64,000 nt of DNA from sequence record CP132319.1; one strand, 5' to 3'. Below the pieces are notes generated by a model. That model did no database searches and was not told the DNA's origin. It saw only the letters and a list, made by a program, of their open reading frames with translations. This stretch comes from a plasmid. Shown here in pieces: positions 11,687-61,973 of the stretch (the first letter of the stretch is position 1; each line of letters opens with the position of its first letter). The translations under genes and the position numbers were made by a program.

Positions 11687-11700
11687 CTTCGTTTCCTTTC

Positions 11701-34994: not shown

Positions 34995-35305
34995 AATATA
35001 GGGAAAAGCGCCCAGGATGGCAAGAATTTGGGGTCAGATGGCTAGTTTCCGATAAGGGTTACTTATCGGGGGTTAGACAACGGGGCACTTTTATGGCAGG
35101 TGTAGAACCCTAGTTGCCGTATAGCTTTCGCGTAGCAAATCGTTTACGATAAAAACAATGGCTTACGATCTCGCGAAATTGCCCATCTCCACCCTGCTGA
35201 AACCCGTTGCCGACGCCAGCTGTGGCTTTTAGCTCCCGATTTCAATTGAAGCGCCAAGCTAAAAAAGCGAGGGCCTGATTTTACCTAAGCTGTTCACGAA
35301 GGCCG

Positions 35306-35809
35306 TCAATTTGTAGGGAGCGATGAGGCACTTGGAGGGAGGTCGGCAGCATTGTCAGCAAGCGGATGCGCTTCGAGATCTGCGATCAGCGACTTCATTT
35401 CACCGATCTCCCGGACCTGAGCTTCGATGATCCCGTCAGCCAGCTTGCGCACCCGCGGATCTCTGATGTGCGCGCGTTCGCTGGTCATGATGGCGATGGA
35501 ATGATGGGGGATCATCGCCTTCATGTAGCTGACATCGTAGACGGTCTCCTGGCTGCGCACGAGCCAAAGGGACCCGGCAAAGACCAAAACGCTGACCGCG
35601 ACAATGACGGCATTGGCAGTCTTGTTCTTATACATTGACCACATGAAGCCGATCATGATGATCGCCATGACCGCGCCCATCAGTAGCGCCATCCACGTCC
35701 TGGTCTGGCTGTAGGTAACGTGATCGAGGGCATACGTATTCAGGTACATTAGACCAAACATGATCACCGTCGAGGTGACGATCATCGTGGCAAAGCGTCC
35801 ATAGGACAT
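35306..35809 (-). CDS. DUF305-family membrane-anchored protein
   Basis: Two N-terminal TM helices; DUF305 signature ...YMKAMIPHHSIAIMTSE (compare MIAHHMGAISMAE at 16912). Confidence 0.7.
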   Translation of the reverse strand: MSYGRFATMIVTSTVIMFGLMYLNTYALDHVTYSQTRTWMALLMGAVMAIIMIGFMWSMYKNKTANAVIVAVSVLVFAGSLWLVRSQETVYDVSYMKAMIPHHSIAIMTSERAHIRDPRVRKLADGIIEAQVREIGEMKSLIADLEAHPLADNAADLPPSASSLPTN

Positions 35810-35824
35810 GGGAATCTCCTTCCT

Positions 35825-36565
35825 CTACTTGATAAGCATCCAGACCGCCATCGCGACCATCATCAGGTTTTCAGTTAATGAGATGAAGCCTAAGGGGACA
35901 TTGCTGTCGCCGCCGACGCAGGCGCATTTCAGTTCACGGCGCTCAATGTAGACGGCCTTCAACACCGAAACGGCACCGATAGTCCCGATCACCAACGCGA
36001 CCGGGATAGCCAGCCACAACAGAAAGCCGGCGATCATCAGGATCCCGGCAAGCGCTTCCCCGAATGGATAGAGGTAGGCATAGCGGACCCAGCGCTGGGC
36101 CAGCAGGTCGTAGCCGAGGAACATGTTGGAGAAGCTCTCGACGTCCCGAAGCTTCAGGATCGCAAGTATACACATGGAAATCGCGATAAACCATTCTAAG
36201 GCACGAGCGGTTAGAACGTCGCTAAACGCCGCCCAACTGGCTGCGAGGGCCATCAGCGCGGCCATGGCAAACACCGCGATCACCGGCTGATAGGTGACAG
36301 CCTTTGGATCGCGAACGGTTTTGCCGAAATGACGAAGCAGATCGTCGTAGCCGCCGACCCGCTGCCCATCGATGAATGTCTGGGGTGTTGTCTCAACCTC
36401 GTGCTCGGCCTTGAAGGAATCGGTCTCTTCGCGGGTTTTCAGCCAGTTGTCGTCAACAGAGAAACCCTCGCGTTTCAGCAGATCGAGGGACTTCAAGCCA
36501 AACGGACAGATGTGGTCGGGCATGACCATCCGATAGATCGTCGCTCTGCGCGAATGAGCATTCAT
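35825..36565 (-). CDS. Glutaredoxin-domain / MauE(DoxX-like) membrane-domain fusion protein (thiol-disulfide oxidoreductase)
   Basis: N-terminal IYRMVMPDHICPFG thioredoxin-fold motif; C-terminal approximately 150 aa with four TM helices and ...CACVGG; overlaps the csoR stop. Confidence 0.65.
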   Translation of the reverse strand: MNAHSRRATIYRMVMPDHICPFGLKSLDLLKREGFSVDDNWLKTREETDSFKAEHEVETTPQTFIDGQRVGGYDDLLRHFGKTVRDPKAVTYQPVIAVFAMAALMALAASWAAFSDVLTARALEWFIAISMCILAILKLRDVESFSNMFLGYDLLAQRWVRYAYLYPFGEALAGILMIAGFLLWLAIPVALVIGTIGAVSVLKAVYIERRELKCACVGGDSNVPLGFISLTENLMMVAMAVWMLIK

Positions 36566-36584
36566 CCGATCACCTCTAATATCT

Positions 36585-36860
36585 CTAGCGCCTTGCGCGA
36601 TCGAACAGCTCGACGAGTTCGTCCAATTTCTGCTGTTGCTCACTCGCATCGCCGGACTTGATTGCATCCGCGACGCAGTGAGCCGCGTGATCACGAAGAA
36701 TCTCGCTCTCAGCTCGGCCGAGGGCTGCTTTCACTGCCTGGATCTGATGCAGGATGTCGATGCAATAGCGATCGTCAGACACCATTCGCGCCAAACCCTG
36801 GACCTGACCGGCAATCCGGTTTAACCGAACGATCTTGGCCCGCTTTCTGTCGCCGCACAT
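36585..36860 (-). CDS. csoR: CsoR/RcnR-family metal-sensing repressor
   Basis: 91 aa; ligand pattern ...YCIDILHQI... and ...HAAHC (Cys-His-Cys spacing typical of Cu(I)-CsoR). Confidence 0.75.
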   Translation of the reverse strand: MCGDRKRAKIVRLNRIAGQVQGLARMVSDDRYCIDILHQIQAVKAALGRAESEILRDHAAHCVADAIKSGDASEQQQKLDELVELFDRARR

Positions 36861-36992
36861 CGTTACCTCTCATACCCTAGGGGAGTATGTTCAACGATCG
36901 CGGTCCGCCATTGTTCCCTTACGACAGCGAAGACTTCGCCCGTACCGGCCCAAAGCGACGCCTAGGTTATGCAGTAAGGGCGAAAAGAGCGT

Positions 36993-38126
36993 TCAAAGCC
37001 CGGAGGCTTTGGTGAGGTTCACGCGGAAGCGATCACGCCGTCGCTGATAGCGTCGCGTCATCTCGGCCGAAGCATGGCCAAGCTGTTTCTGGACATAACG
37101 TTCGTCGACCTCGGCTGAAGAGGCGAGACCGGCGCGGAGGGAGTGACCGGAGAACTTGAAGGCGCGCTCGATCTCGCTGAGATTGCCGCGAACGCCGGCC
37201 GCCAGTGCGGTGCGCTTTACCAGCCGGGCGACCTCCTTGTCGTTCAGCCGCTCCGATCCGACAGCTTTCCCTTGCCCTGTCACGCGGCGAAAAAGGGGAC
37301 CGTGGGCCAGCCTGGCGAACTTGATCCACATCTCGATCGCGGCGACCGGGCAGGTCGCGTCAGACGAGCCGCGACCCACCTCAACCTCCCGCCATCCGGT
37401 TTTTCCGCGCAGGGTAACGAGCATCCCCTTGTCGAGGATTTCGATCCAGCCGCGCCCGTCTTCGGTCTGGTCTGCCTTCAGATCAAGGCCAACGATCTCG
37501 GAGCGGCGAAGACCACCGGCAAAGCCGACCAGCAACATGGCGCGGTCGCGCAGGCCGCGCAGCGAACCGCGGTCGAGCGTCTCGACCATGGCGATGATGT
37601 CTTCAGCCATGACCGCTTCCTTCTGCACCGGTGGCTTGGCATGGCTGTTGCGAATGCCAGCCATCACGGTGGCGATATGCCGGTCCTTGCGATCGAGCGA
37701 GAGGCCGCGCTGGGCATAGTTCCAGGAAAGCGAGGAGAGGCGTCGTTCGATGGTCGAGACGGAGTTCGCTTTCGCGCCCCGTTCAGCCGTGCCGGAAGCG
37801 CAGGCCGTAATATAAAGCCCTACAGTTTGCGGATGTGGGGGGAGGGGAGTGAGATTCGAGCGCCGGCACCAGGCTGAAAAATGCTTCCAATCGGCGGCAT
37901 AGGCTTTGCGCGTGTTGGCGGAACTGGCGGCTTCAACATAACCCCGGGCGCGATCAGCAAGGCTTGCAAGATGGGCGGGCGTCTGGTCCTGAATGGCGAG
38001 AGAGGGGAGGGGGCTATCGCCCGACACCCCCGGCGTGGAAACATCACGCTTCGGCGCCGTGCTGAGAGACGGCGCAGAGATCTCCTCGAAGTGATTTTCG
38101 GTTTTTTGCTCGATCATTTGGGCCAT
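36993..38126 (-). CDS. Tyrosine site-specific recombinase (phage integrase family; plasmid resolvase-like)
   Basis: C-terminal catalytic residues ...HSLRAGLA...LGHASAEMTRRY; 377 aa. Confidence 0.8.
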   Translation of the reverse strand: MAQMIEQKTENHFEEISAPSLSTAPKRDVSTPGVSGDSPLPSLAIQDQTPAHLASLADRARGYVEAASSANTRKAYAADWKHFSAWCRRSNLTPLPPHPQTVGLYITACASGTAERGAKANSVSTIERRLSSLSWNYAQRGLSLDRKDRHIATVMAGIRNSHAKPPVQKEAVMAEDIIAMVETLDRGSLRGLRDRAMLLVGFAGGLRRSEIVGLDLKADQTEDGRGWIEILDKGMLVTLRGKTGWREVEVGRGSSDATCPVAAIEMWIKFARLAHGPLFRRVTGQGKAVGSERLNDKEVARLVKRTALAAGVRGNLSEIERAFKFSGHSLRAGLASSAEVDERYVQKQLGHASAEMTRRYQRRRDRFRVNLTKASGL

Positions 38127-38233
38127 TTCTCTATTATGAGAAAAACATCCGATAATGCAAGATTATCGTTCGTTTTTATCTGTCGACGGGCGCGGCGGTT
38201 TATGCGCCAGATACTGGCTCAAAGCGCCGTCTT

Positions 38234-47855: not shown

Positions 47856-49880
47856 TCATTCAGCAGCCTGCAGACTGCGCCTCTGGTTCTCGGTTACAGC
47901 ATGATCCGCTTCGGATGCGGCTGGCAGTCGCCATCCCTTGATCAGCCCATAGACGGCCGGAATGACGACCAGCGTCAGCAGCGTCGACGACACCATGCCG
48001 CCGATCATCGGTACGGCGATCCGTTGCATGATCTCCGATCCCGTGCCGGTCCTCCACAGGATCGGCACGAGGCCGGCCATGATGGCGGCGACGGTCATCA
48101 TCTTCGGTCGGACGCGCTCGACCGCGCCGACCATGATCGCCCGATTGAGGTCCGGCTTCGAGAAGGAACGACCCTCCTGTTCGCAGGCTTCGCGTTGCTC
48201 CTTCAGGGCGTGGTCGAGATAGATCAACATGATCACCCCGGTTTCCGCCGCCACGCCTGCAAGGGCAATGAAGCCGACGGCGACCGCCACCGAGGCGTTG
48301 AAGCCCATCCACCACATCAGCCAGATGCCGCCGACCAGCGCGAACGGCAGCGACAGCATTACGATGACAGTCTCCGTCAGCGCCTTGAAGTTCAGGTAGA
48401 GCAGCAGGAAGATCAGGGCCAGGGTCAGGGGAACGACGACGGCCAGTCGTGCTTCGGCCCGTTGGAGATATTCGAACTGACCGCTCCAGGCGACGGAATA
48501 GCCTGGAGGCATCGTCACGCTCCTTGCCACTGCCTGCTGGGCTTCGGCGACATAGCCGCCGAGATCGCGGTTGGCGATGTCGACGTAGATGTAGACGGCG
48601 AGCTGGCCGTTTTCGGTGCGGATGGTTGTCGCTCCGCGCGTCAGCTTGACGTCCGCGACCTCGCCGAGAGGAACCGTCCCGCCGCCCGGCAGGGATATCT
48701 GCACGTCCCTGGCGATCGACTGCGGATCGCTTCGCGAGGCCCGTGGATACCGTATTGCCACGCCATATCGTTCCCGGCCTTCGACCGTCTGGGTAACGAC
48801 CTCGGAGCCCAGCGCCATGCCGACAACGTCCTGGACATCGTTGATGGTCAGCCCGTAACGGCCGAGCGCCGTTCGATCGGGAACGATGTCGAGGTAGTAG
48901 CCGCCGATCACCCGCTCGGCATAGGCGCTCGACGTACCGGGGATTGTCTTCAGCACGCTTTCGATTTGGCGAGCGACTTTTTCCATCTCGCCGAGATCTG
49001 TACCGTAGACTTTAACCCCGACGGGCGTTCTGATCCCGGTCGACAGCATATCGATGCGGGCGCGGATCGGCATGGTCCAGGCATTGGAGACGCCGGGGAA
49101 CTGCAGGGCGGCGTCCATCTCCTGTTTCAGGCTGTCGGTGGTGACCCCCGGCCGCCATTCCGACTTCGGCTTCAGGGTGATGATCGTCTCGAACATCTCC
49201 GTCGGCGCCGGGTCGGTGGCGGTCAGCGCCCGCCCGGCCTTGCCAAAGACGGTTTGGACTTCCGGGAAGGACTTGATGATGCGGTCCTGCGTCTGCATCA
49301 GCTCGGCCGCCTTGGTGACCGATATGCCGGGCAAGGTGGTCGGCATGTACATCAGCGTGCCCTCGTCGAGATTGGGCATGAACTCGCTACCGATATGCTG
49401 GACGGGCCAGGCAGTGACCCCGAGGATGACGAGCGCCGCCAGAATCGTCAATGTCTTGACCCGCAACACCCCAGCAATGACGGGGCGGTAGATCCAGATC
49501 AGGAACCGATTGAGAGGGTTCTTGTGCTCGGGAACGATATAGCCCCGAACGAAGAGGATCATCAGTGCAGGCACAAGCGTCACCGATAGCAGGGCGGCAG
49601 CAGCCATCGAGAAAGTCTTGGTGAAGGCGAGCGGCCCGAACAGCCGGCCTTCCTGCGATTCCAGTGTAAAGATCGGCAGGAACGACACGGTGATGATCAG
49701 CAGGCTGAAGAACAGCGCCGGCCCGACCTCGCTCGCCGCCTCTATGAGGATTTCCACCCGTGGCTTGTCAGGCGGCGCACGCTCGAGATGCTTATGGGCA
49801 TTCTCGATCATGACGATCGCCGCGTCGATCATCGCGCCGATGGCGATAGCGATGCCGCCGAGGCTCATGATGTTTGCACC
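47856..49880 (-). pseudogene. 5'-truncated cusA/czcA paralog (lacks the first approximately 370 codons)
   Basis: From GIGANIMSLGGIAIAIGAMIDAAIVMIENAHKHLE onward it aligns with cusA at 29415 (high protein identity, roughly 80% by eye at DNA level); upstream of that point the sequence is unrelated. Confidence 0.7.
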
Positions 49881-50100
49881 GATCCCGGTTCGGGCAGAGG
49901 TCGCGGACCTGTCCATGCTGTCGGCGCACGCCGACGCAAACGAGCTGATGCGCTGGCTGTCCGGCTTCCGTCGGCCGCCGTCCCGCGTGTTCATCGTGCA
50001 TGGTGAAGACGATGCCTCCGAAGCGCTGCGCGTGCGGATCGACCGCGAGCTTGGATGGAACGCAGTCGTCTCACGCCAGAATCAGGCTTTCGACCTATGA
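49881..50100 (+). pseudogene. 3'-terminal fragment of an MBL-fold beta-CASP gene (only the last approximately 70 codons)
   Basis: ...PVRAEVADLSMLSAHADANELMRWL...VFIVHGEDDASEAL matches beta-CASP motif C and the C-terminus; it abuts the truncated cusA paralog. Confidence 0.5.
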
Positions 50101-51629
50101 CGATCAACAACGTCGAACCCGAGGTTCCTTCTCAGCCGACGCTACGCGTGCGGCGCCTGCGGCTGCACACTCAGCACCAGGCCGTGGTGGTGATGCGCAC
50201 CGATTGCCATGTCTGCCGCTCGGAGGGTCTGTCCGCGCGCACCCAGGTCCTCGTCTCGATCGGCGCGAGACAGGTACAGGCAACGCTCTTTCAGGTCGAA
50301 GGAGATGCATTGCTCGCTCAGGATGAAGTCGGTCTTTCTGAAACAGCCTGGCAGATCCTCGGCGTTAGCGAGAATGACAATGTGACGGTGACCCATCCTC
50401 CGGCCGTGGAGTCTCTGACGAGCGTGCGCCGTCGCATATATGGCAATCGCCTCGACGCGCACGCCTTTGCCGAAATCGTGAGCGACGTGGTCGCAGGCCG
50501 CTATACCGAGGTCCATCTCGCCGCCTTTCTGACCGCCAGTGCCGCGCTTCCTCTCGACGAGAGCGAGACTGTTGACCTCACGCGCGCCATGGTCGATGTC
50601 GGCGACCGGATGAGCTGGAATGCTCCGATCGTTGTGGACAAGCACTGTGTCGGCGGGTTGCCGGGCAATCGAACCACGCCGATCGTCGTCGCGATCGTGG
50701 CCGCCAATGGCCTTGTCATGCCGAAGACGTCTTCGCGCGCGATTACCTCGCCAGCCGGCACCGCCGACACAATGGAAACGCTTGCCCCTGTCGACCTCAG
50801 CATCGAAACCCTTCGACGCGTCGTGGAAGCAGAAGGCGGATGCATCGCCTGGGGCGGGGCGGTGCATCTCAGCCCCGCCGACGACATTTTCGTCCGGATC
50901 GAACGCGAACTCGACGTGGATACCGAGGGACAGCTTGTCGCTTCCGTCCTTTCAAAAAAAATCGCCGCTGGCTCGACGCATGTGGTTATCGACATCCCGG
51001 TTGGGGCAACCGCCAAGGTGCGCAGCGAAGCGGCCGCCGATCAGCTCGCCAGTCGCCTCAGCGCCGTCGCTGCCCGTTTCGATCTGGCCCTGACCTGCGT
51101 CCAGACCGACGGTTCGCAACCCGTCGGGCGCGGCATCGGCCCAGGTCTAGAAGCCTTCGACGTCCTGGCGGTTCTTCAAAACGCGCCGGATGCGCCGGAC
51201 GATCTGCGACGCCGCGCGATCCTGTTGGCGGGCGCCGCGCTTGAGATCGGTGGAAAGGCCGCAAAGGGGAAAGGTGAAGCGCTTGCGTTGGCGACCTTGG
51301 TCGACGGTCGTGCCTGGTCGAAGTTCATGGCGATCTGCGAGGCGCAAGGCGGACTTCGTGAGCCACCGAAGGCCGCACAGGTTCATCCGTTGATCGCGTC
51401 GCGCGCCGGCCGCGTCGTCCATATCAACAATCGCAAAATCGCCCGACTCGCCAAGCTCGCCGGAGCGCCGGAGTCGAAGGCGGCAGGCGTCCAAATGGCC
51501 GTCCGCCTCGGCGACGAGATCGCCAGCGGCCAGCCGCTTTTGCACGTTCACGCCGAGACGGCTGGTGAACTTGGCTACGCACTGGACTATGCCGCGCATG
51601 CAGGCGACCTTTTCGAGGTCGAAAGTTGA
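50097..51629 (+). CDS. Thymidine phosphorylase-family protein (TP-like, about 510 aa)
   Basis: Glycosyl-transferase family-3 fold motifs ...DKHCVGGLPGNRTTP... and ...SRAITSPAGTADTME; C-terminal PYNP domain; ATGA coupling with the upstream fragment. Confidence 0.7.
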   Translation: MTINNVEPEVPSQPTLRVRRLRLHTQHQAVVVMRTDCHVCRSEGLSARTQVLVSIGARQVQATLFQVEGDALLAQDEVGLSETAWQILGVSENDNVTVTHPPAVESLTSVRRRIYGNRLDAHAFAEIVSDVVAGRYTEVHLAAFLTASAALPLDESETVDLTRAMVDVGDRMSWNAPIVVDKHCVGGLPGNRTTPIVVAIVAANGLVMPKTSSRAITSPAGTADTMETLAPVDLSIETLRRVVEAEGGCIAWGGAVHLSPADDIFVRIERELDVDTEGQLVASVLSKKIAAGSTHVVIDIPVGATAKVRSEAAADQLASRLSAVAARFDLALTCVQTDGSQPVGRGIGPGLEAFDVLAVLQNAPDAPDDLRRRAILLAGAALEIGGKAAKGKGEALALATLVDGRAWSKFMAICEAQGGLREPPKAAQVHPLIASRAGRVVHINNRKIARLAKLAGAPESKAAGVQMAVRLGDEIASGQPLLHVHAETAGELGYALDYAAHAGDLFEVES

Positions 51630-52150
51630 CGTGGCGGCTGTCCATTTGGATACGCCGGCACCGTCCGGCCGGCGCATTCTCGATCTACCAGCGCTTGATG
51701 CACTGGATGGTCCTTATCCTGTGTATCATCCAGGTCCCCACGGCCTGGGCGATCCAACGCACGCACATGGCGCACCTTTTCTTGAAACCTAAACCCTTCG
51801 ACCTTTTCCTGCATCAGGTTCACGCCTGGAGCGGATGGCTGATTATGGCGCTGGCGCTCAGTCAACTTATTCTGCGCTTCACATATGGCCGACCACCTCC
51901 GATCCAGGGCATGTCGGTGCTTGAGCGCATGATCGCAGGGGTCACTCATGCGGTGCTCTACGGCCTATTGCTCGCACTGCCGATCACAGGCACGATCGCT
52001 ATGTACGTGACGTTCCGCATCGCTTCCCTGCACAGCCTGCTGAGCTGGATGCTTCTGGTCGTTGCGACCACTCACGCCCTCGCTGCTCTGTGGCATCACT
52101 TCTGGCGTCGCGACGACGTGCTGCGGCGAATGATCAGGAACACGAAATAG
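51626..52150 (+). CDS. Cytochrome b561-family (Ni/Fe-hydrogenase b-type cytochrome-like) membrane protein
   Basis: Four TM helices with conserved His (LMHW..., HQVHAWSGW, AGVTHAVLYG, ATTHALAALWHH); the start codon is uncertain (TTG 51626 or an internal Met). Confidence 0.65.
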   Translation: MTWRLSIWIRRHRPAGAFSIYQRLMHWMVLILCIIQVPTAWAIQRTHMAHLFLKPKPFDLFLHQVHAWSGWLIMALALSQLILRFTYGRPPPIQGMSVLERMIAGVTHAVLYGLLLALPITGTIAMYVTFRIASLHSLLSWMLLVVATTHALAALWHHFWRRDDVLRRMIRNTK

Positions 52151-52369
52151 CGCGCCGGACAGTCAGCCCACGGGTAAATTCTATCTAGTCGAGCGCGCTT
52201 CTCCGCGCGAGCAGCACACTCATTTGCGGAGATTGGCGCGCAGGTCGTTTCGGTGAGCGGCCTCGCAAGCATTGATCCCTACGTGTTTGATGCAGCGCAA
52301 AGTGATCATTCTGGATCTGCGCTAGATTTGCCCCCAGTTTCTACATTCAAGCAAACCGAAGGATGAGCC

Positions 52370-52801
52370 GTGGTGGCCGCCGGCGTGACAATGGTCAAGG
52401 CGTTCAGAAGGTCGCATAATTGGGCGACCGCCTTGCGGCGCGGGTTTATCCTTTTCTTCGCCATCGCGTTCGGGCTTACGGCGTTTCTCACAGATGGCGG
52501 GCATCAAGCGCGTGCTGCTTCAAGGGAGGGCATCCCGGCGCTCATGACTCAAGCTGGGGATTGTGCCGACCTCCTCGTGCGCATGCCCTGCGACAACGAT
52601 ACCCAACGCGGCGCCGAGCACCCGTGCGACAGCGGTCACTGCCTGTCGAGCCTCGGGTGCTTCCTCTGCGCTCCGCTGAACACGGCCTGGAGCTGGCGCA
52701 CGTTGAACGCCGAGACAGTCTCGCCGGCTGCATCGCCCGTGCCCTCATCCGCGGAGTTGCGTCGTCAGAAGCGACCTCCGCGATCCATCTTGGTCATCTG
52801 A
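52370..52801 (+). CDS. Small membrane-anchored Cys-rich protein (member 5 of the paralog family)
   Basis: TM (GFILFFAIAFGLTAFL); DCADLLVRMPCDNDTQRGAEHPCDSGHCLSSLGCFLCAP; C-terminal ...KRPPRSILVI. Confidence 0.45.
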   Translation: MVAAGVTMVKAFRRSHNWATALRRGFILFFAIAFGLTAFLTDGGHQARAASREGIPALMTQAGDCADLLVRMPCDNDTQRGAEHPCDSGHCLSSLGCFLCAPLNTAWSWRTLNAETVSPAASPVPSSAELRRQKRPPRSILVI

Positions 52802-53120
52802 GCACCTTCGGCCTGTTCTGTCCGTGTGCTCCAGCCGACCCGAGGACTGGCACAATGCCTTAGTCTTCCGACCGTGCGCGTCCCAGGCCGCCCAACGATA
52901 CGGCCGAGGAGACGAGCCGTTCTGCGTGACGCCGACGTGACATAGCCTCCAATCGTCGGCTGCCGGCGAGCCAGAAAGGGCCATGCACGGACCTTGCCGA
53001 AATCGGTAGGCAGCGGCACGCGAGGAAGTCTTCGGTATCCGCACGCCGGGCCACTTTTCAAACTCACCTCAAGATGTGCTCGAGCAGCCCGCAAGGCTGC
53101 GAGCCGAGGAGCTGAATACC

Positions 53121-54260
53121 ATGTTAAAGACCCACTCGACCCGTTCGATTTCCATCACCGCGGCAGTCCTGACAGCAACCGCGATTCGCAGACGTGCGGC
53201 CATGCTGGCCTTCGCGACGGCATCGGCCCTGGTGCTTGCTATTCCGTTCGCCGCCACCGTCCGAGCGGAGCCTGCTGCAACCGGCTTCGTCTATACGGCC
53301 GATGAATTTGGCAACACCGTTAGCCGCATCGACCTTGCCACGGAAAAGATCGACATCGTTCCGGTCCCGATCACGCCCCACAACGTGCAGTTCGTATCGG
53401 GAAAAGATTTGGTGCTGGCGGTGGGCCTGCCGGTCGCCGGCAAAGCTGAAGACGCTCATGCGTCCAATGGGGCTGGCCATGGCGGCGACGGACATGGTGA
53501 TGCCGCTGTCGCAGGCCAATTGATCGTCCTCGACGCGGCCGATATTTCCTCCGGCGTGAAGGCGTCGATCCCCGTGGGTGGGCATCCTGCGCATGTGATC
53601 GCAGACGCGCAAGGCAATCGCGCCTACGTCTCGAATTCCGAAGACGACAGCTTGTCGGTCGTTGATCTTGCCAAGGGCGAGGTCGTCGCCACGGTCGGCA
53701 CCGGCGACTACCCCCACGGCCTGCGGATGAGCCCGGATGGAAGCGCCATCTATGTCGCGAATGTCCAGGACGGTACTGTTTCGGTTATCGACACAACGGC
53801 GCTTTCGGAAGTTGCCAGGATCAAGGTAGGCGTTGCGCCCGTCCAGGTCGGCTTCACACCTGACGGAAAGCGGGTCTATGTCTCGCTGCGCGATGAAAAC
53901 AAGGTCGCCGTTATCGACACGCAGTCGCGCGAGGTGATCGCACGCATCAATGTCGGCCGTTCGCCCATCCAGGTTTACGCCACGCCTGATGGCCGGCTGG
54001 TTTACGTCGCGAACCAGGGAACCGAAACGGAGCCGGATGAGACGGTCTCGGTTATCGATGTCGTAGGCGGGAATGTCGTGAAGACCATCCAGACGGACAA
54101 GGGCGCTCACGGCGTGACGGTCGTTGCCGACGGAGCCTTTGTCTTCGTCACCAACATCGTGGCCGGGACCGTTTCCCAGATCGACGTCGGCAGCCAGTCC
54201 GTGGTCAAGACATATGCTGTCGGCAAGGGACCGAACGGCGTCACCTATCAGGCGCAGTGA
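53121..54260 (+). CDS. Secreted YVTN-family seven-bladed beta-propeller protein with a His/Gly-rich insert
   Basis: Repeated ...YV(S/A)N...D..vsviD... blades; RRR-containing signal (possibly Tat); insert AHASNGAGHGGDGHGDAA. Confidence 0.7.
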   Translation: MLKTHSTRSISITAAVLTATAIRRRAAMLAFATASALVLAIPFAATVRAEPAATGFVYTADEFGNTVSRIDLATEKIDIVPVPITPHNVQFVSGKDLVLAVGLPVAGKAEDAHASNGAGHGGDGHGDAAVAGQLIVLDAADISSGVKASIPVGGHPAHVIADAQGNRAYVSNSEDDSLSVVDLAKGEVVATVGTGDYPHGLRMSPDGSAIYVANVQDGTVSVIDTTALSEVARIKVGVAPVQVGFTPDGKRVYVSLRDENKVAVIDTQSREVIARINVGRSPIQVYATPDGRLVYVANQGTETEPDETVSVIDVVGGNVVKTIQTDKGAHGVTVVADGAFVFVTNIVAGTVSQIDVGSQSVVKTYAVGKGPNGVTYQAQ

Positions 54261-54381
54261 TGCAACGTCGGGGCGGCGCTTCGCCGCCCCGCACGACCTA
54301 AGCCTCAAACCTATGAGCAGGACGGCCGGCATGCAGGCTTCATCAATGGACAAAGGGTCGGCGAGGCTCTATTCTTTGCCC

Positions 54382-54732
54382 ATGCTTCGCGCGTTGCTTA
54401 TCATTGTTACAACCATCTCGCTTGCCGCTGCTTCTTTTGCCGTTCAAGCACACGAGACCCGCATGTCCGGGATGTTGGAACGCGCCGCGCTGACGCAGCA
54501 CATGGAGCAAGCCTCTTCTTCGATGGCCGCTTGCAGCGAAGGGAAATCCTGCAAAGCAGATGCCGGATTGTGCACCTTCGCCTGCGCCGGAATATCGGCC
54601 TGGCTTCCGGTTGTGCGTACTTCGGCAAAGCAAATCAGCTCGCGGCAAAAATATCCCTTCCCGCCGGATGCCGTCTTCGTTGCGGCAGCTCCCGGCCGGA
54701 ATGATCGCCCTCCTATATCGCGCCTCCTCTGA
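54382..54732 (+). CDS. Small membrane-anchored Cys-rich protein (member 6 of the paralog family), directly upstream of a multicopper oxidase gene
   Basis: TM (LLIIVTTISLAAASFA); CSEGKSCKADAGLCTFACAG; C-terminal ...DRPPISRLL. The start could also be the upstream Met at 54331 or 54346. Confidence 0.5.
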   Translation: MLRALLIIVTTISLAAASFAVQAHETRMSGMLERAALTQHMEQASSSMAACSEGKSCKADAGLCTFACAGISAWLPVVRTSAKQISSRQKYPFPPDAVFVAAAPGRNDRPPISRLL

Positions 54733-54807
54733 GCCTGCGGCGGGGCTGATCCCGCTGCGATCCATTTGGACCTTTCAGGCGGGACAGATCGTCCCGAGGT
54801 GACGAAT

Positions 54808-56292
54808 ATGACGACCTTTTCACGACGCGGCTTCCTCGCCGCCAGCGCAGCCATGCTTGCTGCATCCCATTTCCCCATCAGGGCCTACGGCCAGGACGCG
54901 GCTGCGATCCGCCTGGCCGCCACCAGCCGCACGCTCGATATAGACAATCGACCGGCCACCGTTTTCGGACTTGCTGGTCCCAACGGGCAGGGGCTGCTCC
55001 TCGATCCGGGCGAGCGATTTCGGGTGGATCTGACCAACGATCTCGCCGAGTCCACGATCATTCATTGGCACGGCCAGATTCCCCCGAACGCTCAGGACGG
55101 CGTCCCGGATATGCCGCAGCCGCTTCTTCAGCCCAGTGAAACGCGCAGCTTCGATTTCGCGCCCCAGCCCGGAACGCACTGGATGCACAGCCATGTGCCG
55201 ATCCAGGAAATGCGATTGCTCGCCGCGCCGCTGATCGTCCGGAGGGCAGAAGACCTATCCGCCGATCGGCAGGAAGTCGTCCTGTTCCTGCACGACTTCG
55301 CGTTCAAGACACCGGAAGAAGTGCTGGAAGAGATCACCAGCGCAAGCGCTGATGGACATGGCGCTGCCGGCATGTCACGCGCGATGCAAGGCATGAACCA
55401 TGGCGGCATGCCTGGAATGAACCAGGGCGAGGCCGGGGGAATGGGCTCGATGGCCATGGATATGGGTAACATGGCGATGGATCTCAACGACTACGACTGG
55501 GATGCCTATCTCGCCAATGACCGAACCCTGTCCGATCCCGATGTCGTTCAGGTCGAACGCGGCGGCCGGGTTCGCCTCCGTGTCATCAACGCAGCCGCAG
55601 CCACCGTTTTCTGGATCGACACGGGCGAAGCACAAGCCCGGCTCGTCGCCGTCGACGGGCATGAGGTCCAGCCGGTCGCGGGTTCGCGGTTCGGGCTGGC
55701 CATGGGGCAGCGTCTCGACCTGGAGATCGACCTTCCAAATGAGACCCGCGCATGGCCGATTCTGGCGCTCAGGGAGGGCGAACGTGAAAGGACCGGCATT
55801 ATTCTCGCCCCCGCGGGCGCCACGATCGACAGGATCGATTCCCTTTCAGCGAATGACGCCCCGGCCTTCGACACGGACTTGTCTCAGGAGTCACGGCTGG
55901 TCGCTGTCGACACGCTTGCCGCCCGTCCGGTGGATCGAAGCCACATGATCATGCTCGGCGGCTCGATGCAGCCCTATGTCTGGACTATCGACGGAGCACC
56001 ATGGGGCAAGCATCGGCCGGTTGCCGCAACGAGCGGCGATCGGGTGGAACTGATGTTCCACAATATGTCGATGATGGGGCACCCGATGCATCTGCATGGG
56101 CATGCATTCCAGGTTGTTGGCATCAACAGGCGACGCTTCGAAGGTGCGCGCCGCGATACCGTGTACATACCGCCGATGTCGATGGTCACTGTTGCCCTTG
56201 ATGCCGGCGAGGCCGCGAGCTGGATGTTGCATTGCCATCATATGCCGCATCTGGCCACCGGGATGATGACCGAGTTCAGGATCGCTGCATGA
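54808..56292 (+). CDS. copA: CopA/PcoA-type multicopper oxidase (paralog of 20110..21573) with Tat signal and Met/Gly-rich insert
   Basis: MTTFSRRGFLAASAAM Tat motif; HWHGQ, HPMHLHGHAFQVV, HCHHMPHLATGMM; Met-rich GMNHGGMPGMNQGEAGGMGSMAMDMGNMAMD. Confidence 0.85.
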   Translation: MTTFSRRGFLAASAAMLAASHFPIRAYGQDAAAIRLAATSRTLDIDNRPATVFGLAGPNGQGLLLDPGERFRVDLTNDLAESTIIHWHGQIPPNAQDGVPDMPQPLLQPSETRSFDFAPQPGTHWMHSHVPIQEMRLLAAPLIVRRAEDLSADRQEVVLFLHDFAFKTPEEVLEEITSASADGHGAAGMSRAMQGMNHGGMPGMNQGEAGGMGSMAMDMGNMAMDLNDYDWDAYLANDRTLSDPDVVQVERGGRVRLRVINAAAATVFWIDTGEAQARLVAVDGHEVQPVAGSRFGLAMGQRLDLEIDLPNETRAWPILALREGERERTGIILAPAGATIDRIDSLSANDAPAFDTDLSQESRLVAVDTLAARPVDRSHMIMLGGSMQPYVWTIDGAPWGKHRPVAATSGDRVELMFHNMSMMGHPMHLHGHAFQVVGINRRRFEGARRDTVYIPPMSMVTVALDAGEAASWMLHCHHMPHLATGMMTEFRIAA

Positions 56293-56723
56293 AACCGCTC
56301 TGGATCGCGGTCGCCGCAACTCTCCTGGCGGCGGCCGGTGCGATCTTGGTCGGAAAGGGACGGTCCGGTCAGGAGGCGAGCGATCGCATCGCCCTTGGCC
56401 GGGCAGTCTATCTAGCGAACTGTGCGAGCTGTCACGGCACGAAACTCGAAGGCCAGCCCGACTGGCGCAGCCCGGGCACGAGCGGCCGCCTTCCGGCGCC
56501 GCCGCATGACAAGACCGGTCACACCTGGCATCATTCGGACAGGCAGCTCCTCGCAATCATCACCGATGGGACCGCCGCGGTGGTTGGCGGTGGCTACGAG
56601 AGTGACATGCCCAGCTTTCGGGAGGCTCTGACCTCCGCCGAGATCGAGGCTGTCCTCGACTACATCAAGAGTACCTGGCCGCAACGAGAGGCAGACTACC
56701 AACGCCGCATCTCGAACGGCTGA
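56289..56723 (+). CDS. Class I c-type cytochrome (single CxxCH), translationally coupled to the MCO gene
   Basis: TM/signal then CASCHG; ATGA overlap with the MCO stop. Confidence 0.75.
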   Translation: MKPLWIAVAATLLAAAGAILVGKGRSGQEASDRIALGRAVYLANCASCHGTKLEGQPDWRSPGTSGRLPAPPHDKTGHTWHHSDRQLLAIITDGTAAVVGGGYESDMPSFREALTSAEIEAVLDYIKSTWPQREADYQRRISNG

Positions 56724-56864
56724 CACGCCGGAGGCCACGAAAACAATTTCGTGGCCCCACATCGCCATCGCGCGCCGCCCCACCACCACATTCATGCCGA
56801 CGGGTTCGGCAGTTGATGGCGGCAGAGAGGGTGTTCGGCGGCCTAAAGACATAAGGATTCACAA

Positions 56865-57296
56865 ATGAACAAGAGAAACGTCTTCGCTCTGCTCGTCGCC
56901 GCGGCAGCGGTTGCGGGCTTTGCGCTTTGGAATCGAACCGGATCGGAAGACGAAGCCAGAAGAGGAGTATCGGGCCAGGGGACGGCATTGTCGGTTGTCG
57001 TGCCTTCGTCATTGTCCGACACCGCAAAGATGGGAGAACGAGCTTTCAACGCCGTCTGTGCAGCGTGCCACGGCAAGAACGCGGCCGGAACCGATGCCGG
57101 CCCGCCGCTCATCCATCGGATATACGAACCTTCTCACCACGGAGACTACGCCTTTGAAATGGCCGTCGCCAACGGCGTGCGCGCGCATCACTGGAAATTC
57201 GGAAACATGCCTCCTCAGCCGGGTCTGACGAGGGCCGACGTCGCTACGATCGTGGCCTATGTGCGCGAGCTTCAGCGGGCGAACGGCATCAATTGA
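56865..57296 (+). CDS. Class I c-type cytochrome (single CxxCH)
   Basis: Signal peptide; CAACHG heme motif; distal Met in ...GNMPPQPG. Confidence 0.75.
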   Translation: MNKRNVFALLVAAAAVAGFALWNRTGSEDEARRGVSGQGTALSVVVPSSLSDTAKMGERAFNAVCAACHGKNAAGTDAGPPLIHRIYEPSHHGDYAFEMAVANGVRAHHWKFGNMPPQPGLTRADVATIVAYVRELQRANGIN

Positions 57297-57421
57297 GGAG
57301 CATTGGCGGCGAGATACCCTGCCAGACCTGTCGAGGCGGGTTTGAGGAAATCGGGCGGCTGCGAGTGGAGTTGTGGTGTGATAGGATGAGGCGGCCAAGT
57401 CGCCTATGGGAGGGGTGTGCA

Positions 57422-57790
57422 ATGCGAACTGGCATAACATGCGCATTTGTCGTTCTGGCTTTGCTGGTGTCGGCGTCAAATGCCCAAGAGGATCAGCCGT
57501 TTCATACGTCTTATTTCGCGGATGAAACGACCATCAGCCTGTCCGTGACCGTCGCGGCAACCTCTCTTGACCCGGAATATAATTTCGATGTGCAAGTCGC
57601 GCTCACGGAGCGCGGACCCGAGGGTCAGATCAGATTCATCGACCACAGCGCCCACCTTGCAAAGGTACGATGCGCCGCGCCGAAGGCCGTCATGATCGGC
57701 CAATCAGAGTTTATGCTGTCGGATTCGCCCGAGCCGGGGGATTGGAAGCAGGATCTCTGGCGCACCTTCTGCCTCCTGCCGGTCTCATGA
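57422..57790 (+). CDS. Small secreted protein of unknown function; paralog of 9057..9428
   Basis: Signal LALLVSASNAQ; shares ...QPFH..(E/Y)F.D...ISL...........(D/E)..F..DV.V.LTE..P.GQ......HLA.VRC.AP.AV..G..........P...DWK.DLW.T.C..PVS with the 9057 ORF. Confidence 0.6.
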   Translation: MRTGITCAFVVLALLVSASNAQEDQPFHTSYFADETTISLSVTVAATSLDPEYNFDVQVALTERGPEGQIRFIDHSAHLAKVRCAAPKAVMIGQSEFMLSDSPEPGDWKQDLWRTFCLLPVS

Positions 57791-57796
57791 GGAACG

Positions 57797-57822
57797 GGGC
57801 CGCGCTGCATCCAGCGCGGCCC
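57797..57822. terminator. Hairpin GGGCCGCGCTG-catc-CAGCGCGGCCC between convergent genes (candidate bidirectional terminator)
   Basis: 11-bp perfect stem read in the sequence. Confidence 0.45.
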
Positions 57823-57828
57823 TGTGCT

Positions 57829-58113
57829 TCACTTGACCTGGGTGACAGTCAGCTTTCCGTTGACGCGCTCGGCAACGAACTGGACCTTTGCGCCGACCTT
57901 GAGCTTTTCCAGCATCGCGTCATCAGCGACCTGGAATACCATCGTCATGGCCGGCATCTCGAGGTTCTTCAGCTCTTCATGGATGAGCGTGACCTTCTTC
58001 GCCTTCTCGTCCAGCTTCTTGACCGTGCCGCTGGTGAATTCCTGCGCGAAGGCGGCGGTGCCGAAGGCGAAGGCGACGGCGCCGGCGAGTGTGATTCTTG
58101 TGATAGCTTTCAT
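57829..58113 (-). CDS. cusF: CusF-like periplasmic Cu(I)-binding protein (second copy)
   Basis: Near-identical to 9520..9804 (…MPAMTMVFQVAD…KLTVTQVK). Confidence 0.8.
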   Translation of the reverse strand: MKAITRITLAGAVAFAFGTAAFAQEFTSGTVKKLDEKAKKVTLIHEELKNLEMPAMTMVFQVADDAMLEKLKVGAKVQFVAERVNGKLTVTQVK

Positions 58114-58131
58114 CGTCATTTCTGTTGCTCC

Positions 58132-58608
58132 TTATTTCTTCGCGACCGTGACGTCGCCGTGCATGCCGGAATCGTAGTGACCGGGAACGAGGCAGGCGAT
58201 CTTGAACACGCCGTCGTTGGTGAACTTCCAGACGATCTCGCCGGATTTTCCGGGCGCGAGGCGAATGGCGTTCGGATCCTCGTGTTCCATTTCCGGGAAT
58301 TTCTCCATCACGGCTTTGTGCTCCATGATCTTGTCTTCCTGGTCGAGCACGAATTCATGATCGACCTCGCCCGCATTCTTGATCGCGAAGCGAACGGTCT
58401 GGCCCTGGCGGACCTTGAAGGTGCTTGGTGTGAAGATCATCTTGCCGTCATCCGTTTCCTTCATCGTGACACGGATGGTCTGGGACGCCTTGGCCTTTTC
58501 ACCGGGTTCGCCAACGGCCATTTCGCCATGACCGCCCTCATGCGAACCGGATGCAAAAGCAGCGGTGGCAAACGTTGAGAGTAGCAGACCAACTAGAATG
58601 CGTTTCAT
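58132..58608 (-). CDS. Secreted cupredoxin (second copy)
   Basis: Homolog of 9822..10298 with the same C..H..M type-1 copper ligands. Confidence 0.8.
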   Translation of the reverse strand: MKRILVGLLLSTFATAAFASGSHEGGHGEMAVGEPGEKAKASQTIRVTMKETDDGKMIFTPSTFKVRQGQTVRFAIKNAGEVDHEFVLDQEDKIMEHKAVMEKFPEMEHEDPNAIRLAPGKSGEIVWKFTNDGVFKIACLVPGHYDSGMHGDVTVAKK

Positions 58609-58639
58609 AATCGTTTCCTTTATCGTTTCTGGGAGGAAG

Positions 58640-59962
58640 TTAACCGTGATTGGAATGGCCAGACGGAAGTTGTGTCTTGGCATCTTTCGCTTTGACAGGC
58701 TCGGGCAAGCTCCCGGTCCATTCCCACGCCTGCGTGCCGGGAGGGTTCTCGTACCAACCCGGATCGCTGTAGTCGTCCGCTGAGATACCCTCGCGGACCT
58801 TCACCACGGAGAACATGCCGCCCATTTCGATCGGGCCGTGGGGACCCCACCCGGTCATCATGGGGACGGTGTTCTCCGGTATTTCCATCGACATTTCGCC
58901 CATATCCGCCATGCCGGCCGTCCCCATGGGCATGTATTCGGGACGGATCTGCCTGATCTTTTTTGCAACCTCCTTCTTGTCGACCCCGATGAATGTCGGG
59001 ATCTCGTGACCCATGGCATTCATGGTGTGATGCGACTTGTGGCAATGGATCGCCCAGTCGCCGACGTACTTCGCGTCGAACTCGTAGGCGCGCATCGCAC
59101 CGACAGGGATGTCGATGCTGACCTCGGGCCAGCGCGCCTCCGGCCTGACCCAGCCGCCATCGGTGCAGGTCACCTCGAAATCGTAGCCGTGCATGTGGAT
59201 TGGATGGTTCGTCATCGTCAGGTTACCGACGCGAACACGAACCCTGTCGTTCTTGGAAACGACGAGCGGATCGATCCCTGGAAAGACGCGCGTGTTGAAC
59301 GTCCAGAGGTTGAAGTCGGTCATTTCCATGATCCGGGGCACGTATGTTCCCGGATCGATGTCATAGGCGCTGAGCAGGAAGACGAAATCCCGATCCACCG
59401 GCATGAACTTCGGGTCCCGGGGATGGATGACGAAGAAGCCCATCATCCCCATCGCCATCTGTACCATCTCGTCCGAGTGCGGGTGGTACATGAAGGTGCC
59501 GGATTTCACGAGATCGAACTCGTAAACGAAGGTCTTGCCAGAGGGGATGTGAGGCTGCGACAGCCCGCCAAGACCATCCATCCCCGACGGCAGGATCATA
59601 CCGTGCCAATGAATGGTCGTGTGCTCCGGCAGCTTGTTGGTCACGAAAATGCGAACCCGGTCGCCTTCGACTGCTTCGATGGTCGGACCCGGTGACTGGC
59701 CGTTGTACCCCCAAAGATATGCGGTCATGCCTTCGGCCATCTCCCGCTCCACCGGCTCGGCAACGAGGTGGAATTCCTTCACCCCGTTGTTCATTCGGAA
59801 CGGCAAGGTCCAACCGTTGAGGGTGACGACCGGATTGTAATCTGGGCCGACCGTCGGCTTTACCGGGGTTTGCGTGGCCGCCGAGTCCATGAGAGCGGCT
59901 TCCGGCAAGCCCATGTTGGACGTTTGCGCCCAGGTCTTACGATAACGCTGCAATGGTGGCAA
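58640..59962 (-). CDS. Multicopper oxidase, second copy of the 452-aa type, with its N-terminal Tat signal replaced by unrelated sequence (probably non-exported and non-functional)
   Basis: Homology to 10328..11686 begins at ...W(A/G)QTSNMGLPEA; upstream of it the reading frame encodes MPPLQRYRKT instead of the Tat signal; the junction lies at about 59945, next to parDE. Confidence 0.7.
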   Translation of the reverse strand: MPPLQRYRKTWAQTSNMGLPEAALMDSAATQTPVKPTVGPDYNPVVTLNGWTLPFRMNNGVKEFHLVAEPVEREMAEGMTAYLWGYNGQSPGPTIEAVEGDRVRIFVTNKLPEHTTIHWHGMILPSGMDGLGGLSQPHIPSGKTFVYEFDLVKSGTFMYHPHSDEMVQMAMGMMGFFVIHPRDPKFMPVDRDFVFLLSAYDIDPGTYVPRIMEMTDFNLWTFNTRVFPGIDPLVVSKNDRVRVRVGNLTMTNHPIHMHGYDFEVTCTDGGWVRPEARWPEVSIDIPVGAMRAYEFDAKYVGDWAIHCHKSHHTMNAMGHEIPTFIGVDKKEVAKKIRQIRPEYMPMGTAGMADMGEMSMEIPENTVPMMTGWGPHGPIEMGGMFSVVKVREGISADDYSDPGWYENPPGTQAWEWTGSLPEPVKAKDAKTQLPSGHSNHG

Positions 59963-60012
59963 CTAAACCACATATGTGCTAATGTGGGTCCGTCACTTCG
60001 GGAGTATGTGAA

Positions 60013-60264
60013 ATGAGCCGCTTGACGATCGACATAACGGACAAACAACATCAAAGCCTCAAAGCGCTAGCCGCTCTGCAGGGCAAGACAATCAAGCAGT
60101 ACGCACTTGAGCGCCTGTTTCCTGGCGACGTCGAGGGAGAACTGGCCTGGGAAGAGTTAAAGACGTTGATGAATACGCGCATCAGTGAGGGGCTCGCCGG
60201 AAAACTGTCGACCAAAACCGTAGGTGAGATCCTCGACGAGGAGATCGCCGAAGGTCGCGCTTGA
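60013..60264 (+). CDS. parD: ParD-family RHH antitoxin
   Basis: 83 aa; MSRLTIDITDKQHQSLKALAALQGKTIKQYALERL; overlaps parE. Confidence 0.75.
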   Translation: MSRLTIDITDKQHQSLKALAALQGKTIKQYALERLFPGDVEGELAWEELKTLMNTRISEGLAGKLSTKTVGEILDEEIAEGRA

Positions 60265-60563
60265 CGGCTTACATCCTGACCGCAGAGGCAGAATCCGATC
60301 TTCGCTCGGTAATCCGTTACACACGGACACAATGGAGTGCCGCCCAGGTACGTCACTACGTCTCGGCTTTGGAGCGAGGAATGGAGGACATTGCCGCGGG
60401 CAAAGTTCCCTTCAAGGATCTGAGCGCACTCTATCCGGCGCTGCGGATGGCGCGATGCCAGCACCACTACTTCTTCTGTCTGCCTCGAGAACATGCGCCC
60501 GCTCTCATCGTAGCGATTCTTCACGAACGAATGGATCTCATGAGGCGTTGGCTGACCGTCTAA
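60261..60563 (+). CDS. parE: ParE/RelE-family toxin
   Basis: 100 aa; ...ILTAEAESDLRSVIRYT...HYFFCLPR...ILHERMDL; 4-nt overlap with parD. Confidence 0.75.
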   Translation: MTAYILTAEAESDLRSVIRYTRTQWSAAQVRHYVSALERGMEDIAAGKVPFKDLSALYPALRMARCQHHYFFCLPREHAPALIVAILHERMDLMRRWLTV

Positions 60564-60713
60564 ACGAGTGATGTTTTCACGACGGGAGGAACTCCTGCGC
60601 GCGTGCTAGATAAGCCCTTGTCTTCGAGCGATCAAAAAGGTGTCGTCGGTTCGGATCCCTTCAAGAGCAGCGAATCTGACGCTTCGAGTGGCGTGATGAG
60701 ATTTTTTAAGAGA

Positions 60714-61973
60714 TTACCCGATGGCAAATGGCTCGAAACGCAAGGGCATGCCCCGTTCTAGGGTTACGAGCTCCGGTGGCAGGATTGCCAGACCGTCGGC
60801 ATGGGCCATGGGCAACAGGCTTCCCGACGATCCGCGGCCCAGCATTGCAAGCAGGGGAGTGCCAGAAGCGTCGCGACTCTGAAGGCGGACGGCGACGAAT
60901 TCCGTTCGGCCCTCCTTCTTGCGCAACCCAAAGTCGGAGATCGCCGGCATCCAGACGGGATCCAAACGCTCGATCCCGGCCACAGCCCTGATCGCCGGCA
61001 GCGCAATCTTGTCAAGTGTCACGGCGGCGGCCATGGGATTCCCAGGAAGCCCGATAAAGAGCGCCGACCCCAGCGTGCCGAAGGAAACCGGCTTACCCGG
61101 CCGCATGGCGACATCAAGCACGCCGAGCGACCCGCCGCTGCGTGTTAGCGCGTCCCGCACATGATCCTCGCCACCCTTGGACATCCCGCCTGACGTCACG
61201 ACGATATCGTGCTCCGTAGCAGCGCTGTGAATGATATCGGTGGTCGCCTCAATCGTGTCCGGCGTCGCCCCGAGATCGCGGACTTCAAGCCAGGGATGCG
61301 ACAGCATGGAGGCGAGAAGGTAGCGGTTGGAATTGTAGATCTGGCCAGCTGCCAGGTGCTCACCCGGCTCTTTCAGTTCAGAGCCTGTTGTGATGAACCC
61401 GAGTCGGATCTTTCAAACGATGGAAATCCGAGACAAGCCTGCGGCCGCGAGCAGCGCAATCCGGTGTGCTGTCAGAACCGTCCCGGCCTTGAACAGCAGA
61501 GAGTTTTGGTCGACGTCTTCGCCCGCCCTGCGGATGTTCTCGCCTGGGCGGGGCCGGTAGGCGGTGGTGAACTCGCGATCGTGCCGCGAGCATTTTTCAC
61601 GGATGATCACGGCGTCGAAACCGGCCGGGATCATCGCGCCGGTGAAGATTTCCACGGCCTCAGCACTTTCGAAACTGCGGCTGCTGGCCTGATCTCCGGC
61701 TGCCACTCTGTCTGCGACCAGAAAGGTCCAGGGACCACTGCCGGAAAAATCTGCCGAGCGGACCGCAAACCCATCCATCGCCGAATGATCAAAGCGCGGC
61801 AAGGCACAGGGCGAGCGGATGTCGGCGGCCACAACTCTTCCCGCAGCAGAGAACAGTTCTAGATTTTCGCTGGCGGTCACGGGCCGACAGAGGCTGATGG
61901 CGCGGCTCACCGCATCGGCAACCGACAGCATGGGGCGAGCAGCGTAGGCTGGCCCGCAGTCGAGAGAGTCCAA
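60714..61973 (-). pseudogene. moeA: Molybdopterin molybdotransferase gene interrupted by an in-frame TGA at 61413-61415 (otherwise an intact approximately 410-codon reading frame)
   Basis: The N-terminal part (…LSVADAVSRAIS…PRFDHSAMDGFAV…RISIV*) and C-terminal part (KIRLGFITTGSELKEPGEHLAAGQIYNSNRYLLASMLS…TSGGMSKGGEDH…) are in the same frame, separated only by TGA. Confidence 0.7.

Follow-up and report, generated by a model that had tools for sequence, protein, structure and literature searches.

A signal-less multicopper oxidase gene beside parDE probably marks the eroded, inherited end of a copper block circulating among Rhizobiaceae plasmids

What is a multicopper oxidase (MCO) gene stripped of its export signal doing next to a toxin-antitoxin pair? 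The question is raised by positions 57,422 to 60,563 of a 64,000-nucleotide stretch of plasmid DNA (record CP132319.1; the whole stretch is called the window), in which a short series of copper-related genes ends against a parDE pair. An earlier note, made from the sequence alone, described this series as a decayed second copy of a module at 9057-11686 and proposed a partial duplication, stabilised or brought in with an addiction module. The comparisons described here suggest instead, with a probability of about 80%, that the locus is the eroded end of a copper block circulating among plasmids, that it was cut at one microhomology junction and inherited in this state, and that its MCO is an inactive remnant.

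Self-comparison of the window by blastn gave a single strong repeat, 9522-11622 against 57831-59934, with 81.1% identity over 2108 nucleotides (nt) and E = 0, which spans the genes for CusF, a cupredoxin and the MCO. The gene order of the module at 57422-59962 (copy 2) is identical to that of the module at 9057-11686 (copy 1): a small secreted protein on the plus strand, a hairpin, and then CusF, a CopI-like cupredoxin and the MCO, all on the minus strand. The second module therefore does repeat the first, as had been proposed. Copy 1, the reference for copy 2, is composed of the following features (lengths in amino acids, aa; Tat, twin-arginine translocation):

9057-13382, minus strand: intact module
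9057-9428, plus strand: small secreted protein
9520-9804, minus strand: CusF
9822-10298, minus strand: CopI-like protein
10328-11686, minus strand: Tat-exported MCO, 452 aa
11701-13161, minus strand: TolC-like gene, directly upstream of the MCO
13161-13382, minus strand: lipoprotein, 73 aa

The corresponding features of copy 2 are:

57422-57790, plus strand: small secreted protein of 122 aa with an N-terminal signal-like segment, convergent with cusF
57794-57825 (about), no strand: G+C-rich hairpin between the convergent genes, likely a bidirectional terminator
57829-58113, minus strand: CusF-like periplasmic copper-binding protein (Pfam CusF_Ec, E = 1.8e-25), intact, with its own signal peptide
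58132-58608, minus strand: CopI-like cupredoxin (Pfam Copper-bind), intact, with its own signal peptide
58640-59934, minus strand: 5'-truncated MCO, whole mature domain from codon 22 onward

The MCO of copy 1 (452 aa) has the N-terminus MFNRRQFLGAGAASAAIVSSTAWGQTSN, with the twin-arginine motif MFNRRQFLGAG; the general form MF[NS]RRQ[FL]LGAG is found in copy 1 and in the proteins P0004 and P0014. Pfam TAT_signal matches copy 1 weakly, its 18 bits falling short of the cut-off of 22.7. In copy 2, homology to copy 1 begins only at ...WAQTSNMGLPEA, and from T10/A22 on the two proteins are 94% identical. The open reading frame (ORF) called by the Prokaryotic Genome Annotation Pipeline (PGAP), 58640-59962, extends past 59934 to a TTG at 59962; it begins MPPLQRYRKTWAQTSN and gains 10 unrelated residues, giving 440 aa. 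The Tat export signal is absent from this product (start MPPLQRYRKTWAQ), no RRxFL motif occurs in any frame, and the new N-terminus, MPPLQRYRKT, is without a hydrophobic core. A TAG stop (59963-59965) lies immediately upstream of the TTG, and tblastn with the intact signal region recovered nothing but residues 21-43 near copy 2, whatever the frame, so that no in-frame upstream start with a signal peptide had been missed. The start of the truncated gene differs between gene callers, with products of 440, 436, 424 and 416 aa, and its ORF lacks the native start codon, the Shine-Dalgarno sequence and the upstream operon genes. In particular, tblastn over the 64-kb window found no second TolC-like or lipoprotein gene accompanying copy 2, in agreement with the absence of the outer-membrane-factor and lipoprotein genes reported in the earlier note.

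The breakpoint was defined by a three-way comparison of the window, an intact MCO locus and a native parDE context. The intact counterpart came from a protein search: P0004 is a 452-aa MCO, 99% identical to copy 2, with the N-terminus MFNRRQLLGAGAAGAAFVSSKAWAQTSN (MFNRRQLLGAG...). It is encoded on a metagenome contig, L009, together with a TolC-like protein, CopI, CusF, the small protein, two cytochromes c and an upstream MCO. This contig matches window 54705-59934 at 99.06% identity, and the homology ends at 59934. The break consequently falls between 59934 and 59935, within MCO codon 22 and 78 nt upstream of the parD ATG, and the Tat signal is lost exactly at the parDE junction, as first described. 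The native parDE context is locus L006. The three sequences at the junction position read:

window: ...GCGCCCAGG / TCTTACGATAACG
intact MCO, L009: ...GCGCCCAGG / CTTTGGATGA (left side ends CCCAGG)
native parDE context, L006: ...GCAAGCGAGG / TCTTACGGTAACG (left side ends GCGAGG)

The features on the far side of the MCO are:

59932-59934, no strand: junction, 3-bp microhomology AGG common to the MCO and the native parD upstream region
59935-60012, plus strand: parD upstream region of 78 nt (promoter/operator remnant), conserved in parDE cassettes of unrelated contexts
60013-60264, plus strand: parD antitoxin, 83 aa (Pfam ParD, PF09386, E = 5e-31)
60261-60563, plus strand: parE toxin (Pfam ParE_toxin, PF05016, E = 2.2e-10)
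60564-60668, no strand: 3' tail of the parDE cassette, ending in a dispersed Rhizobiaceae intergenic repeat at 60634-60668

Lost at the break are 21 of the approximately 24 Tat signal codons, the start codon and the AAAGGA Shine-Dalgarno sequence; of the A-W-A motif, the probable signal cleavage site, the MCO of copy 2 retains only W-A. No insertion sequence (IS) ends, inverted or direct repeats or target duplications flank the break at 59935; in place of the direct repeats that the earlier note had thought worth looking for there is only the AGG microhomology. As a separate observation, no intact near-identical MCO other than P0004 (L009 1590-2948) was found, and in this protein the first His of HPHS is replaced by Leu (MYLPHS), perhaps through an error in the metagenome assembly or through a lesion of that copy.

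The junction is not confined to this plasmid. Read in reverse orientation, the Shinella sumterensis plasmid NZ_CP132308.1 is nearly identical to the window (99.8-99.9%) except in one segment, 35265-38150. The 22-mer across the junction is present in a Hyphomicrobiales metagenome-assembled genome, two Ciceribacter species, Rhizobium terricola S-51 and one metagenome contig. It also occurs on two Agrobacterium tumefaciens plasmids, and the N-terminus created by the junction recurs in a 440-aa protein of Brucella grignonensis. Junction-bearing loci show 99.4-99.8% identity to the window; for copy 2, including the junction, the figure is 99.7% against the plasmids of A. tumefaciens CFBP6623 and Ciceribacter selenitireducens. 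Since the same junction is carried by replicons of other genera that lack the window plasmid backbone, it predates the window plasmid: a single truncation took place elsewhere and reached this plasmid by inheritance, as part of a shared copper-resistance block that spans window 49881-60668 (10.8 kb).

The history that best accounts for these comparisons would run as follows. Segment 57422-60668 would be the eroded right-hand end of the 49881-60668 block circulating among Rhizobiaceae plasmids, and its original state an operon of lipoprotein, TolC-like protein, Tat-exported MCO, CopI-like cupredoxin and CusF, of the rhizobial 'MCO operon' type. One illegitimate recombination at AGG (59932-59934) would have fused MCO codon 22 to a site 78 nt upstream of parD, with a deletion as the simplest version of the event. 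Removed with the 21 Tat codons, the start and the Shine-Dalgarno sequence would be the TolC-like and lipoprotein genes, any upstream promoter and regulator and also the far-upstream part of the parDE cassette; the junction would then have spread within the block by horizontal transfer and recombination.

The parDE side of the junction bears on how this happened. The cassette is found in at least three unrelated contexts, where it runs about 150 nt further left (L006, L007), and relative to these two loci it is left-truncated at the junction. Distant parDE cassettes start matching at window 59954-59968, which leaves only about 20 nt between the break and the conserved parDE unit. A toxin-antitoxin locus can limit how far a viable deletion runs, and the position of the endpoint may fit a deletion limited in this way.

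Some observations weigh against parts of this history. The event may have been a replacement, with a recombined segment brought in, instead of a deletion; the L009 contig stops just upstream of its TolC gene, and in PLSDB no plasmid was found in which a near-identical TolC gene precedes an MCO of the copy-2 type. Homologous exchange inside the MCO gene also occurred, as P. flavum plasmid 3 (L001) documents: it has about six mismatches over 56000-58740 (2.7 kb), after which the MCO drops to about 85% identity with a synonymous divergence (dS) of 1.18, placing a crossover at 58622-58742, at the 3' end of the MCO, where the MCO-TolC end was swapped between lineages. The idea of a toxin-antitoxin-limited deletion is based on one endpoint. 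Finally, the MCO ORF runs without a break through each of the seven DNA copies compared (the window and six further loci) with its copper ligands conserved, so that it may retain some function, and the promoter scan described below, which used the Escherichia coli consensus, could miss alphaproteobacterial or internal promoters. P. flavum plasmid 3 was itself considered as the intact ancestor and rejected as a recombinant; L009, with P0004, is the proper counterpart.

The same junction might have been made by insertion, with the parDE cassette or a larger carrier entering the MCO signal codons and the 5' part of the MCO, the TolC gene and the lipoprotein gene being lost or displaced later. Such a course would suit a cassette found in many contexts unrelated to one another, whose sharp right end is formed by a dispersed repeat that could mediate recombination. 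We regard it as unlikely: the cassette is left-truncated at the junction relative to L006 and L007, terminal repeats and target duplication are missing, and tblastn found no displaced TolC gene, signal-peptide fragment or other piece of the operon in the window or in the flanks of the six junction-bearing loci.

What remains of the MCO in copy 2 is a gene without its front end. Pfam recognises Cu-oxidase_3 (PF07732, E = 7e-42) and Cu-oxidase_2 (PF07731, E = 2e-28) in copy 2, both MCO copies have the four histidine copper-ligand motifs HWHG, HPHS, HPIHMHG and HCHKSHH, and the 1.3-kb frame is unbroken apart from the 5' loss; the earlier term 'decayed' is accordingly too strong. A scan of 57300-60800 found no sigma-70-like promoter on either strand. 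The genes for the copy 2 cupredoxin and CusF sit downstream of the MCO on the same strand, and both proteins are intact, their operon promoter presumably being lost. The MCO of copy 2 is thus probably not exported and poorly expressed or silent, with no role as a periplasmic copper oxidase, and is probably a recent, inactive gene remnant. Copy 1 has a response regulator and sensor kinase pair beyond its TolC-like and lipoprotein genes, on the opposite strand; it appears to have been acquired separately, with this two-component regulator of its own, and would supply the working system.

That the signal-less MCO nevertheless works, expressed from a parD-divergent or internal promoter and acting in the cytoplasm or, by piggy-backing, in the periplasm, is very unlikely. 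It would agree with the persistence of the junction in at least five genera and with the 1.3-kb frame and four ligand motifs being intact in every truncated copy examined; the intact frame and ligands are no argument for function, however, because the junction-bearing copies differ by just 0.2-0.6% and an unbroken frame is expected from recency alone. Counts of nonsynonymous to synonymous changes among seven junction-bearing copies (6:4 in the truncated operon, 6:5 in the other block genes), about 1:1 in both, give no sign of specific constraint, and the native start codon, the Shine-Dalgarno sequence, a promoter-like site and a hydrophobic N-terminal core are all wanting. Relaxed selection after the truncation was considered too and set aside, as such counts are uninformative at this divergence. 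A more specific proposal, that the MCO has been kept for a new role, expressed from the parD-divergent region, binding or oxidising copper in the cytoplasm or reaching the periplasm by piggy-backing on another exported protein, would account for the frame being intact in all junction-bearing replicons examined; to our knowledge no cytoplasmic role has been described for an MCO of this type, and we consider the proposal doubtful in the extreme.

The relation between the two modules disposes of the last alternative. The dS between copy 1 and copy 2 is 1.44, with synonymous sites near saturation, and the ratio of nonsynonymous to synonymous divergence is 0.04. Copy 1 is 96.4% identical over 4.6 kb, TolC included, to a plasmid of Roseateles sp. 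XES5. The two copies are consequently not each other's closest relatives (81% mutual identity, against 96.4% and 99.1-99.8% to outside relatives), and with closer relatives of each elsewhere they are separately acquired relatives. The partial duplication of copy 1 on this plasmid, decayed and held in place by parDE, as the earlier note had it, draws on the shared gene order and the adjoining parDE pair and is scarcely credible in view of the 19% DNA difference (dS ~1.4), the relatives of each copy at 96-99.7% identity on other replicons, the junction on replicons of other genera that have no backbone in common with this plasmid, and the frameshift in the window parE.

The toxin-antitoxin pair is itself altered. 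It begins 50 nt beyond the MCO ORF and is divergent from it, with a palindrome, CCACAT...ATGTGG, at 59968-59987 upstream of parD and a 4-nt overlap of parD and parE at 60261-60264. A 1-nt deletion in a T run (60547 region) of parE changes the C-terminus to RRWLTV instead of the RRLADRLNE of four homologues, and owing to this 3'-terminal frameshift the window parE does not encode a full-length toxin. In parD, R44L (60143 region) is confined to the window lineage and replaces a residue that four homologues all share. The PLSDB table of the near-identical record leaves the toxin coding sequence unlisted and skips locus tag RS27765. To judge from these changes, the pair may be decaying in the window plasmid. 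Of the suggestion that the module was brought in or stabilised with an addiction module, one part stands, since module and parDE do travel together; the case for stabilisation is weakened, with parE frameshifted here and the module outlasting parDE in Ciceribacter, where an IS21 element cuts parD and destroys the pair while the truncated module is still there.

Among characterised systems, the closest is the MCO operon of Sinorhizobium meliloti CCNWSX0020. In PMC6266702, a copper-induced operon of Omp, CueO, a blue-copper protein resembling azurin and a chaperone for copper is described and a periplasmic action of the MCO proposed (both citing Lu et al. 2017), and the 'MCO operon' is also traced to Li et al. 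2013/2014. The genes of copy 1 and their order (TolC-like, Tat-MCO, cupredoxin, CusF) agree with that published description, whereas copy 2 differs in lacking the Omp (TolC-like) gene, the lipoprotein, the 5' end of the operon and the MCO signal peptide. With the outer-membrane gene and the Tat signal both missing, copy 2 is, on its gene content, a truncated remnant of the MCO-operon family and not a working member. At the DNA level, both copies match S. meliloti and S. fredii megaplasmids at 76-82%. Copy 1 and its intact relatives share N-R-R-Q-[FL]-L-G with Tat-exported MCOs, unlike copy 2.

The window MCOs have Cu-oxidase_3 and Cu-oxidase_2, the four His motifs and a Met-rich C-terminal segment in common with Escherichia coli CueO and PcoA/CopA, but they are short (452 aa in copy 1) and score far below the NCBIfam cut-offs for both CueO and CopA. 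Their best solved-structure matches include the two-domain MCOs 3gdc, 2zwn and 3g5w, with CueO matching in the first domain only; the CueO label of the literature may therefore be loose. Both MCOs (10328-11686 and 58640-59962) have just two Cu-oxidase Pfam domains, together with a C-terminal tail of about 120 aa that is rich in Met. The CopI models NF047895 and NF051440 of NCBIfam detect the cupredoxins of both copies (E = 1e-30 and 4e-23) with scores of 107 and 82 bits, below the curated cut-offs of 280 and 200, and the two proteins are CopI-like only. The parDE pair shares with type II cassettes of this kind its Pfam domains, the 4-nt gene overlap, the palindrome upstream of parD and occurrence on many replicons, and differs by the parE 3' frameshift and parD R44L.

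For annotation, the consequence is practical. The exact 440-aa product is RefSeq WP_306041706.1 ('MULTISPECIES [Shinella]'), labelled 'copper oxidase' or 'multicopper oxidase family protein' with the missing export signal unflagged, so that function is probably overestimated by counts of copper-resistance genes in replicons of Shinella, Agrobacterium, Ciceribacter, Rhizobium and Brucella. The locus is ordinary plasmid mosaicism, unsurprising to specialists, and mainly an annotation caveat; it also offers a clean, datable case of copper-island erosion, with a single microhomology junction across genera, and one possible data point for toxin-antitoxin cassettes setting deletion endpoints.

Sister plasmids record later, independent hits on the copper block, by a mer transposon, an IS6 element and the IS21 element of Ciceribacter. 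In Rhizobium X9, a 99.8% match to the window ends at about 58276 inside copI, with an IS6 transposase gene just beyond. In A. tumefaciens CFBP6623 pAt (L002 9617-9654), a Tn3-family inverted repeat, GGGGTCGGTTCCGGTATGGGGCGAAATGACACCCTAAG, is followed by merR, merT, merP and merA; the insertion lies just past the parE stop region, at the equivalent of window position 60614. The parDE pair was considered as part of this Tn3-family mer transposon and rejected: the inverted repeat (GGGGTCGG...CTAAG) begins after parE, and the transposon is therefore a later insertion beside the cassette.

The 10.8-kb block has no terminal inverted or direct repeats, and transposon ends were rejected on this ground. 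Its left edge at 49881 is apparently specific to the window plasmid lineage: the island annotated in Agrobacterium and Rhizobium X9 has further genes left of the thymidine phosphorylase gene, and their MBL-fold (metallo-beta-lactamase-fold) hydrolase gene is cut off at window 49881. An inverted cusA-like pair, 30558-32525 and 47919-49886, shows 76.7% identity, the second being a partial copy that ends at this block edge. At the right edge, four junction-bearing replicons part from one another precisely after 60668, immediately beyond the repeat, which may therefore be a recombination hotspot. This cassette end (30-35 nt, 60634-60668; AAGGTGTCGTCGGTTCGGATCCCTTCAAGAGC) is an intergenic repeat that about 150 Rhizobiaceae plasmids carry, often with 2-3 copies each. 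A tRNA-derived attachment site was considered for the 30-nt end and rejected, no T-arm being formed by what is a dispersed intergenic repeat.

Among the remaining features, the small secreted protein at 57422-57790 has no match in Pfam or NCBIfam; it is 45% identical to the product of 9057-9428 (E = 7e-38), a relationship undetected at the DNA level. The hairpin at about 57794-57825 has folding free energies of -43.1 (plus strand) and -39.6 (minus strand) kcal/mol (z = -7.4 and -6.4), and its counterpart in copy 1 is an 11-bp stem at about 9486-9512. The CusF protein of copy 2 is identical to its P. flavum counterpart. A single A/G difference sets window position 58622 apart from the RefSeq record, P. 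flavum and L009; it lies within the 31 nt that separate the stop of the MCO from the start of copI, and could possibly fall in the copI ribosome-binding region. Next to parDE, the glp/moeA gene (60714-61931, minus strand) has an in-frame TGA at 61413-61415 where the near-identical RefSeq record has CGA (Arg), and this molybdotransferase gene is therefore a nonsense pseudogene in the window version. The arsenite-oxidase island of pSinA matches the glp segment at 94% identity; pSinA is a plasmid without parDE in which the repeat AAGGTGTCGTCGGTTCGGATCCCTTCAAGAGC also lies downstream of glp (L015 5013-5030).

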